DNA of 49,952 nucleotides, from the NCBI GenBank assembly GCA_001805465.1, contig MHGH01000005.1, positions 1 to 49,952 on the forward strand, given 5' to 3'. Source of the stretch: Omnitrophica WOR_2 bacterium RBG_13_41_10 (GTDB taxonomy: Bacteria > Omnitrophota > Gorgyraeia > Gygaellales > Profunditerraquicolaceae). The translations under genes and the position numbers were made by a program. Shown piece after piece: positions 20,584 to 46,041 of the stretch (position 1 is the stretch's first letter; the number at the start of each line of letters is the position of its first letter). The notes under the pieces were generated by a model. The model saw nothing but the letters and a program-made list of their open reading frames with translations, was not told the origin of the DNA and searched no databases.

Positions 20584-20603
20584 ATATTTTGTTCATTGAT
20601 AAT

Positions 20604-20940
20604 GGGCCACTAGCTCATCTGGTAGAGCACCACCCTCTAATAAGGGGGCGCTGCCGGGTAACTGGTAGTAGAAAATCTTGTAAATTGCGGGAAAATCTGT
20701 GTATTTCAAGATACTCTAAATATAGAGTAACAATTTTTGAATGCAGATAATCCGCAGCCAAGTCCGCCGATAATTATAGCGGAAAGGTTCAACGACTATA
20801 ATCAAGACGCCCTACCGTTTTTATCCAAAAGCGTTATTCTAAAAACGGTAGGGCGATGGGATAGTCTGATCTGTATGGCGACATACAGTTAACACAAATG
20901 TTTAAGGTGGGTGTGCCGCGTTCGAGTCGCGGGTGGCTCA
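20604..20940 (+). tRNA. tRNA-Lys(UUU), interrupted (exon 1 at 20604-20636, exon 2 at 20901-20940). No encoded CCA
   Basis: The joined exons give a 73-nt cloverleaf. Acceptor GGGCCAC/GUGGCUC (one G-U pair), D arm GCUC-AUCUGGUA-GAGC, anticodon stem CCACC/GGUGG with loop CU-UUU-AA, variable loop GUGUG, T arm CCGCG-UUCGAGU-CGCGG, discriminator A. The architecture closely parallels E. coli tRNA-Lys. Confidence 0.85.
20637..20900 (+). ncRNA. Group I self-splicing intron (tRNA-type, IC3-like, no internal ORF) in the anticodon loop of tRNA-Lys
   Basis: - Conserved elements: P AUUGCGGGAAA (20684-20694), Q AAUCCGCAGC (20749-20758), R GUUCAACGACUAUA (20787-20800), S GGGAUAGUC (20858-20866).
- P1: exon CCCU pairs with GGGG (20644-20647), with U.G at the 5' splice site.
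- The terminal G at 20900 precedes exon 2.
- P8 is a 14-bp hairpin (20809-20854).
- P9 is CUGUAUG-GCGA-CAUACAG with a GNRA loop (20871-20888). Confidence 0.85.
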
Positions 20941-21041
20941 TAAATTTAGTAATCCGCGGCGGGTAAATCTTGCGTTCTCCCGCCAGGTGATTAATGGAAT
21001 AGGGCGGGATCCCGCCAGCGTATAAGATGTGCTTGGCGGGA

Positions 21042-21058
21042 GAGTCGCGGGTGGCTCA
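21042..21058 (+). repeat. Direct repeat of the 3' end of tRNA-Lys (T-loop through discriminator)
   Basis: GAGTCGCGGGTGGCTCA is identical to 20924-20940. The downstream flanks are also similar (TAAATTTAGT versus ATAAATTAGT). Confidence 0.85.
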
Positions 21059-21064
21059 ATAAAT

Positions 21065-21099
21065 TAGTTCATAGTTCATAGTTAATAGTCCATAGTTAA
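21065..21099 (+). repeat. Five tandem heptamers (consensus TAGTTCA)
   Basis: TAGTTCA TAGTTCA TAGTTAA TAGTCCA TAGTTAA, contiguous, between the tRNA-Lys region and tRNA-Leu. Confidence 0.8.
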
Positions 21100-21139: not shown

Positions 21140-21221
21140 GGGCGGATGGCGGAATTGGCATACGCGATAGCCTTAGGAGCTATTGGGGAAACCCTTGGAG
21201 GTTCAAATCCTCTTCCGCCCA
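21140..21221 (+). tRNA. tRNA-Leu(UAG), class II with a long variable arm
   Basis: Acceptor GGGCGGA/UCCGCCC, anticodon arm AUAGC-CUUAGGA-GCUAU (anticodon UAG), variable arm UGGGGAAACCCUUG, T arm GGAGG-UUCAAAU-CCUCU, discriminator A. Confidence 0.88.
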
Positions 21222-21262: not shown

Positions 21263-21334
21263 GCGGCGGTAATTCAGCGGTAGAATGCCTGCTTGCCAAG
21301 CAGGATGTCACGGGTTCAAGTCCCGTCCGCCGCT
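21263..21334 (+). tRNA. tRNA-Gly(GCC)
   Basis: Acceptor GCGGCGG/CCGCCGC, anticodon arm CCUGC-UUGCCAA-GCAGG (anticodon GCC), T arm ACGGG-UUCAAGU-CCCGU, discriminator U followed by a T run. Confidence 0.9.
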
Positions 21335-45890: not shown

Positions 45891-46041
45891 AATAAAAACG
45901 AGCGTGCCCTACAGGTTTTTAACGTTTAGGCTCTTGCCCACCATACGGAGGGGAACACCTAAAACAACCCATAGCGGTCTTACCGCTCAACAATAAGTAT
46001 ATTCGGTAAAGTGTATTTTGTCAAGAAATTTATTCTAAAGA

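Follow-up and report, generated by a model that had tools for sequence, protein, structure and literature searches.

A tRNA-Lys(UUU) gene in two exons

The window analyzed here is a stretch of 49,952 nt from Omnitrophica WOR_2 bacterium RBG_13_41_10, a member of the Omnitrophota (positions 1 to 49,952 of contig MHGH01000005.1, assembly GCA_001805465.1). It carries the gene order rpsB-tsf-pyrH-frr followed by genes for tRNA-Lys, tRNA-Leu(UAG), and tRNA-Gly(GCC); by Pfam, the four protein genes code for ribosomal protein S2, EF-Ts, UMP kinase, and ribosome recycling factor. The tRNA-Lys(UUU) gene, which a spacer of only 20 nt separates from frr, is in two pieces. Exon 1 (20604-20636) is 33 nt long, covers tRNA positions 1-33, and ends in C32 U33. 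Exon 2 (20901-20940) is 40 nt long, covers positions 34-73, and begins with the anticodon UUU. Between them is a 264-nt insertion (20637-20900) that matches the Rfam group I intron family Intron_gpI and has no gene of its own. The tRNA gene and all parts of the intron are on the plus strand. The anticodon loop is thus divided as C32 U33 / U34 U35 U36 A37 A38, the slash marking the intron here and below.

ARAGORN reads the joined exons as a canonical 73-nt tRNA, tRNA-Lys(ttt), and assigned both exons from the joined sequence as well as in its intron mode. That mode calls the split gene directly, in the notation i(35,264) numbered from one extra 5' base. By default ARAGORN misses the gene, and its only calls in the window are tRNA-Leu(UAG) (21140-21221) and tRNA-Gly(GCC) (21263-21334), two of the three tRNA genes that we count there. 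With default tRNA finders, Omnitrophota carrying the intron would therefore seem to be without tRNA-Lys(UUU), which is needed to read AAA. The predicted ligated junction joins CCACCCU to UUUAAGGUGG, and in the spliced product GAGCACCACCCU is followed by UUUAAGGUGGGUG. The resulting 73-mer is identical to the uninterrupted tRNA-Lys of three other Omnitrophota genomes (L025, L040, and L072), where it occupies the same slot in the order frr-Lys-Leu-Gly.

To place the gene, we used the frr product as the query in a scan of one genome per species, which returned 80 loci. Labels L001-L072 denote genome loci, and the loci from metagenome contigs include L082 and L111. The closest frr relatives are metagenome-assembled genomes (MAGs) of Candidatus Omnitrophota with 80-82% identity. 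Most of the 72 genome loci keep the order frr, tRNA-Lys(UUU), tRNA-Leu(UAG), tRNA-Gly(GCC). The tRNA-Lys gene is uninterrupted in 65 of them, split in three (L006, L008, and L060), and cut short or unscorable in four, so the intron is present in 3 of the 68 species representatives that could be scored. As the gene order is kept and the tRNA-Lys gene is uninterrupted in 65 relatives, the window gene is the ortholog of the conserved tRNA-Lys(UUU) of the phylum and no stray copy.

The insertion is a complete group I intron

Rfam model RF00028 (Intron_gpI) matches 20627-20888 with 116 bits (E 1.4e-29; gathering score 50), from model position 1 to 253 of 253, far beyond what chance would give. The Rfam alignment stops at G20888, while the true 3' end of the intron is G20900, since this is the sole choice that rebuilds a tRNA, since the product equals the uninterrupted genes, and since the sequence G/UUUAAG is invariant. 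In all 24 homologues aligned (see below) the 3' splice site reads AUG/UUUAAG, and G20900 is the invariant terminal (omega) G. Helices P1 to P9 account for all 264 nt. No endonuclease gene lies inside the intron; the two open reading frames (ORFs) that can be drawn there mechanically have 51-53 codons, start with TTG, and overlap the ribozyme core.

In the Rfam alignment the P1 hairpin pairs 20631-20638 with the internal guide sequence (20643-20650), and the 5' splice site follows U20636. This U is opposite G20645, a U.G pair kept in 24 of 24 sequences. P2 (20651-20668) is a hairpin of 7 bp with the GNRA loop GUAA (20658-20661), and in relatives its loop is always GNRA (GUAA, GUGA, GCAA, GCGA, or GAAA). 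The 5' strand of P3 (20676-20680) pairs with the 3' strand at 20803-20807. The element known as P, AUUGCGGGAAA, spans 20684-20694 and supplies the 5' strand of P4 (20686-20691) and J4/5; its partner Q, AAUCCGCAGC, spans 20749-20758 and supplies the 3' strand of P4 (20751-20756) and the start of P6. An extended arm occupies 20696-20747, with P5 (20696-20700 with 20743-20747), P5a (20705-20710 with 20736-20741), and P5b (20713-20717 with 20724-20728). P6 (20757-20759 with 20786-20788) is extended by P6a (20763-20767 with 20779-20783). Element R, GUUCAACGACUAUA, at 20787-20800 contains J6/7 and the 5' strand of P7 (20794-20799), and element S, GGGAUAGUC, at 20858-20866 contains J8/7 and the 3' strand of P7 (20861-20866), so P7 is closed as a pseudoknot. 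P8 (20809-20817 with 20846-20854) doubles as a 16-nt perfect inverted repeat. P9 (20871-20888) has 7 bp and the GNRA loop GCGA (20878-20881).

An earlier note made from the letters of this DNA had described most of this architecture, and the analysis bears it out. ARAGORN and the three identical genes agree with its two exons joining into a 73-nt tRNA-Lys(UUU). The four core elements it listed are all present, with P lying one base earlier than implied, as are the U.G pair in P1, the terminal G, the GNRA-capped P9, and the lack of an ORF. Its central claim, a group I intron between U33 and U34, is upheld by the covariance-model score, by the exon join, and by covariation. Three of the checks that it proposed, an Intron_gpI search, intron-aware ARAGORN, and a survey for intronless alleles, gave the match, the tRNA-Lys(ttt) call, and the 65 uninterrupted genes reported above.

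A family of introns at the same site

Over the whole precursor, the split genes of L006, L008, and L060 are 79-83% identical to that of the window. To find more members, we searched metagenome contigs for the R and S elements separated by a variable gap and obtained 48 loci. In 27 of the 48, a tRNA-Lys(UUU) is split at exactly CU/UUUAA with a U at position -1 and a terminal G, which brings the further loci split at this site to 30 (3 from genomes and 27 from metagenomes). Their introns are 244-346 nt long; longer apparent values came from orphan copies of exon 1, described below. The closest to the window is L082 (86.6%), and none is identical.

Some candidates were set aside. The intron mode of ARAGORN gave ghost calls for Leu, Val, SeC, Arg, and other tRNAs with 'introns' at 36-41; once the exons were mapped with an explicit pattern, most such calls at the metagenome loci obtained by pattern proved to be tRNA-Lys genes with a split at 33/34. 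Other matches to R and S were placed outside the family (L097, L114, L123, L124; L120 and L129; L081 and L109), among them introns of eukaryotic small subunit (SSU) rRNA, a giant-virus contig, contigs with multiple introns, and cases with no intron. As the R and S strings also match such introns, they are not specific to the tRNA-Lys family. None of the five matches on viral contigs is a split tRNA-Lys gene.

We aligned 24 distinct precursor tRNAs (alignment A2) to a structure that comprises P1-P9, P5a, P5b, P6a, the P7 pseudoknot, and the acceptor, D, and T stems. Standard pairs fill 95.0% of the paired cells, versus 84.8% in shuffled alignments and 37-44% when the partners are slid by 1-3 columns. 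Compensatory changes are found in 45 of 88 pairs, and none of 500 shuffles equalled the observed alignment on any measure. The covarying helices are P2, P3, P5a, P6a, P8, and P9, while P4, P6, and P7 never vary. P2 changes in a compensatory way in 7 of 7 pairs with 97.6% of cells paired. P3 is 100% paired with such a change in 4 of 5 pairs (UA to CG in 8 sequences), and P9 is likewise 100% paired with 4 of 7 and an invariant loop, GGCGAC. The counts are 6 of 6 for P5a, 3 of 5 for P5b, 5 of 5 for P6a, and 7 of 9 for P8. P4 is invariant and 100% paired, P6 is invariant, and P7 is the same in 24 of 24. Overall the core helices P3-P8 are 82-100% paired with the P3/P7 pseudoknot present, and the acceptor and D stems are 100% paired in all 24 homologues. 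All catalytic-core strands of the window (P3, P4, P6, P7, and J8/7) agree with the invariant columns of the family.

One of the variable pairs joins exon and guide. The pair C20633-G20648 (exon position 30; columns 30 and 47) is CG in 16 sequences and GC in 8, which, judged from the alignment, is the switch that a working internal guide would have to make. Taken together the covariation argues strongly for selection on the RNA fold, short of demonstrating catalysis.

Relation to known tRNA introns

Williams (bioRxiv 2020, 10.1101/2020.01.27.920355) screened 80,413 bacterial genomes and enlarged the four classical classes of group I intron in bacterial tRNA genes (Leu.3Ug, Arg.5Ug, fMet.2Ug, and Ile2.5Ug) to 21. 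The seed alignment of that preprint includes three tRNA-Lys introns, Dba165.Lys.2Ug, Mle24.Lys.3Ug, and Mpe6.Lys.4Ug. As its numbering sets the Leu site CUU/AAAA as position 3, position 2 is CU/NNNAA, which is 33/34. The cyanobacterial tRNA-fMet intron is fMet.2Ug, so 33/34 is also one of the four classical sites. The earlier note had thought that tRNA-Lys as host and 33/34 as site might both be new. Both are already in this catalogue, and the window intron belongs to its class Lys.2Ug; by the note's own condition on prior entries, the novelty falls and the intron stays.

Like the window intron, the class as represented by Dba165 in that seed alignment has a tRNA-Lys host, the 33/34 site, a U at -1 in a U.G pair, a terminal G, and no ORF. 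Unlike it, the published Dba165.Lys.2Ug seed has an extra P7.1/P7.2-like insertion after the R element. Since the sequence is only distantly similar to that seed and the seed has an extra domain, the Omnitrophota introns look like a separate lineage within the known class, as far as sequence comparison can tell. Among the seeds, the nearest to the window intron is of a non-classical type, Yba21.fMet.5Ug, with a global alignment score of 152 versus 92 +/- 7 for shuffles.

The cyanobacterial tRNA-fMet intron (fMet.2Ug in the numbering above; Biniszkiewicz et al. 1994) shares with the window intron the site between U33 and position 34 and is, like the family of the latter, sporadic among related species, but its host is another tRNA. 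Some fMet introns encode an endonuclease inside the intron, whereas the Omnitrophota intron is ORF-less and the candidate gene is outside it, in relatives only. An endonuclease of the cyanobacterial tRNA-fMet intron was reportedly the subject of work by Bonocora and Shub in 2001.

The IC3 introns of Azoarcus tRNA-Ile(CAU) and Anabaena/Nostoc tRNA-Leu(UAA) are also small (about 200-250 nt), ORF-less, and located in the anticodon loop. As in the window, their P1 includes the anticodon stem's 5' strand, their core runs from P2 to P9, and P2 and P9 carry GNRA loops. They differ in being inserted at 36/37 (Ile2.5Ug) or 34/35 (Leu.3Ug) in the numbering of the preprint and not at 33/34, in an R element that reads GGUGUAGAGACUA in the Azoarcus/Anabaena-type seeds included there versus GUUCAACGACUAUA in the window, and in not having the extended P5a/P5b arm.

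A search of the literature library returned no paper that names both Omnitrophota and group I introns. The work adds a well-supported, structurally conserved family to a catalogue of non-classical bacterial tRNA introns that is still unreviewed. The phylum to which it assigns the family is uncultured and had not figured in discussions of such introns. The understanding of the group I mechanism is unaffected. What is of greater interest lies in the relatives, where a free-standing LAGLIDADG cassette and an element downstream of tRNA-Lys are found.

A LAGLIDADG gene accompanies the intron in relatives

Between frr and the split tRNA gene, L006, L008, and L060 encode a protein of 280-287 amino acids with a LAGLIDADG_3 domain (E 1e-9 to 1e-13) and an N-terminal helix-turn-helix. 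The ORF is immediately upstream of tRNA-Lys in each (L006:1871-2713, L008:3633-4496, L060:3634-4494). All three genome loci with the intron have it, and all 65 without the intron lack it. About 13 metagenome loci also have it, for an overall share of about half of the intron-bearing loci; beyond the genomes, such ORFs are in L082, L100, L102, L106, L117, L119, L125, L127, and L128, upstream of the tRNA gene except in L100, where the ORF is downstream. About 12 metagenome loci have the intron and no LAGLIDADG ORF, and L111, one of the about 13, retains only a 64-codon remnant, located between an orphan exon 1 and the gene. The NCBIfam matches of the protein are to intein endonuclease domains only, and by sequence it has no relative among solved structures.

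The window differs from these loci in having no endonuclease gene next to its intron. A tblastn search of the window with the LAGLIDADG ORFs gave no match (best E 0.7) and no remnant.

Several loci have orphan copies of exon 1 (29-37 nt) upstream of the LAGLIDADG ORF, ending in the anticodon loop. They were located at L006:1820-1850, L008:3572-3600, L082:21-57, and L111:4874-4906, as well as in L117 and L126 (880 nt upstream of the split gene). The orphan in L082 reads through to CCCUUUUA, the junction of an intronless gene.

A short leader motif, GTTCATTGA, is found just upstream of exon 1 in the window (20591-20599, plus strand). We looked for its pattern, G[CT]TC[AT]TT[GTA]A, in the 45 nt upstream of tRNA-Lys in related loci. 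It is present in 22 of 26 distinct intron-bearing loci versus 4 of 65 intronless loci, a contrast whose p-value would be optimistic because the motif was defined post hoc. The intronless L014 and its closest relative L008, a locus with intron and ORF, have nearly the same leader. As the two leaders are almost equal, L014 is a candidate for precise intron loss on sequence grounds.

L006 and L007 are both from MAG JAZDLA01, the former with a split gene and the ORF and the latter intronless. We considered whether they represent a strain polymorphism and rejected this; DNA identity between the two frr genes is only 70%, so the loci come from two organisms in one bin. Separately, L115 has a split tRNA-Lys without a LAGLIDADG neighbor, and just downstream of it, on the minus strand (529-786), is an ORF of 85 codons that looks GIY-YIG-like by eye (MTWYVYLAEC...GSLYTGVT...).

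Probable splicing and activity of the window intron

From the structure and its conservation we infer a route of splicing by standard group I chemistry. The 3' part of exon 1 (CACCCU) would pair with the guide at 20643-20650 to form P1 with U33 in the U.G wobble, and a free guanosine held in P7 would attack after U20636. G20900 would next occupy the guanosine site while the UUU of exon 2 pairs with G20644, A20643, and A20642 as a short P10. The 3'-OH of U33 would then attack after G20900 and ligate the exons at the junction given above. The anticodon stem (27-31 with 39-43) is expected to form only once P1 is released, because P1 uses its 5' strand. Modification of U34 and A37 and decoding should then follow splicing, because the anticodon stem-loop would exist only in the spliced tRNA.

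We consider it very probable that the tRNA-Lys(UUU) of the window carries a functional, endonuclease-less 264-nt group I intron of the Lys.2Ug class between U33 and U34. A number of points weigh against this account. The case for activity is built from conservation, and a protein cofactor may be needed. P1 has an A.C mismatch in the window (A20632/C20649), and its outer pairs are weak across the family, with 77% of cells paired. A promoter scan found no sigma-70-like promoter around the tRNA-Lys gene. In global alignment with the Lys.2Ug seed taken from the preprint, the window intron scores 129 versus 96 +/- 7 for shuffles, a distant relationship. The comparison with IC3 introns is mixed, for the GNRA loops of P2 and P9 and the compact core fit while the R element, the P5 extension, and the closest seed (Yba21.fMet.5Ug) differ. 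Finally, the part of the account that concerns homing draws on the relatives because the window has no endonuclease gene.

Two other explanations of the split gene bear on activity. It could be a dead tRNA pseudogene with a decaying intron, the lysine tRNA in use coming from a second tRNA-Lys(UUU) gene at another place in the genome; the A.C mismatch in P1 would suit such decay, and a second gene could lie beyond the 50 kb of genome that we inspected, with its three tRNA genes. Yet the exons are intact and would give a product equal to live-looking uninterrupted genes of three species, in the very syntenic position where 65 related loci have their tRNA-Lys(UUU). No core helix has been lost, the strands of P3, P4, P6, P7, and J8/7 are the family's invariant columns, and compensatory change in about half of the pairs is not expected of decaying copies, so that we regard a pseudogene as highly improbable. 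Alternatively the intron is removed in vivo but is not autonomously self-splicing and needs a host protein, either maturase-like or a chaperone. Several group I introns do need such help, for example from CYT-18 and CYT-19 (PMC3984707). The extended P5a/P5b arm together with the weak outer pairs of P1 could reflect protein support. Against this are the compact and complete P1-P9 fold, L2 and L9 kept as GNRA, the invariant P7 and J8/7, and the window's content, where no candidate cofactor gene is linked to the intron. The intron also resembles the small bacterial tRNA introns of Azoarcus and Anabaena, which self-splice in vitro. Dependence on a protein therefore appears unlikely to us, though less so than a dead gene.

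Origin of the intron and its possible mobility

For the window and for each of L006, L008, and L060, the six nearest relatives by frr are all intronless. Among the 17 intron-bearing loci with a full frr gene, the identity of the introns follows that of frr (Mantel rho 0.74; 0 of 2000 permutations). Distribution and correlation together fit either an old resident that has often been lost or homing between near relatives. In the account that we prefer, the intron belongs to a structurally conserved family that is patchy through the Omnitrophota, and the window copy would have been inherited with its tRNA locus. It would now be immobile by itself because no endonuclease gene is there. In relatives the free-standing LAGLIDADG gene would be the likely, putative agent of spread into intronless tRNA-Lys genes. 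The window copy seems to have a common ancestor with the alleles that carry the cassette but to have no means of its own to move.

That the window copy is instead a recent arrival, by endonuclease-driven homing or by replacement of the locus, and not an old vertical resident, is a possibility we take seriously but hold for somewhat less probable than not. The patchy occurrence in three of 68 species representatives with intronless nearest relatives fits it, as does the LAGLIDADG gene, which goes with about half of the split tRNA genes and with no intronless one, and the leader motif that travels with intron-bearing alleles, the window included. The Mantel correlation speaks for the other side, with intron divergence tracking that of the host frr, although frr is a single short marker. 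So do the exons, which match the host lineage, as long residence with many losses or transfer between near relatives only would have it, and the window itself, which has neither endonuclease gene nor remnant.

The orphan exons suggest, from gene arrangement, that a cassette of endonuclease gene, leader, fresh exon 1, and intron may have been inserted at the anticodon loop. A tentative and rather doubtful extension of this would make the window intron an endonuclease-less survivor of such a cassette, which moved by collaborative homing and then lost first the endonuclease and later, in some lineages, the intron. The cassette would have entered the anticodon loop of Omnitrophota tRNA-Lys(UUU) and left an orphan exon 1 behind, and its decay would pass through a remnant of 64 codons as in L111 and full loss of the endonuclease as in the window and about 12 loci to, finally, loss of the intron. 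Collaborative homing is the pairing of an ORF-less intron with a free-standing homing endonuclease, known from cyanophage psbA with F-CphI and from phage T4 mobE with I-TevIII (PMC3984707, PMC6083498, PMC2790892). The relatives are like these in that an ORF-less intron is at the presumed target of the neighboring endonuclease and would protect its carrier. They are unlike them in that the phage cases concern phage protein-coding genes and other nuclease families, whereas here a bacterial chromosomal tRNA gene, a LAGLIDADG protein, and an orphan exon 1 are involved, known from the genes. If true, this would be collaborative homing in a bacterial chromosomal tRNA gene. One tRNA site is in any case found in four states, with intron and LAGLIDADG gene, with intron and decayed LAGLIDADG gene, with intron alone, and intronless, and the related loci offer a tractable series for the homing cycle.

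An element downstream of tRNA-Lys and other features

In the window a 27-nt direct repeat (20924-20950 and 21042-21068) flanks 91 nt (20951-21041) of G+C-rich hairpins. Seventeen of its bases match exactly, GAGTCGCGGGTGGCTCA; they correspond to the 3' end of tRNA-Lys (T-loop through discriminator), after which comes TAAATT. The region 20941-21062 folds at -53.5 kcal/mol (z -3.9). One possibility for repeat and hairpins is an att-like scar, another is a small element that was inserted.

Relatives have, directly after tRNA-Lys, an element that is both structured and conserved and measures about 130-170 nt (GACGAGAAC...GGGGUAACAGCGA...GCGCCAUAGGGGCAGAGCCCC...), as at L012:3634-3798, L016:3645-3802, L034:3760-3938, L072:3644-3800, and L095:1992-2166 (minus strand). 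It always ends in a copy of the 3' part of the same host's tRNA-Lys, and GAACG at its 5' end base-pairs with the GCGUUC of this copy, a pairing in which L012 shows one compensatory change. The element adjoins both intronless and split tRNA-Lys genes. At a permissive threshold no Rfam family was matched in the window or in four relatives, and there is no clear homology between the insert in the window and this element.

Downstream of the tRNA cluster the window contains an EIIA-like gene, a CofD-family gene, and a PtsI-like gene. A DUF3800-V RNA (Rfam RF02964) is on the minus strand at 45895-45994, with 72.9 bits (E 1e-14; gathering score 37.4).

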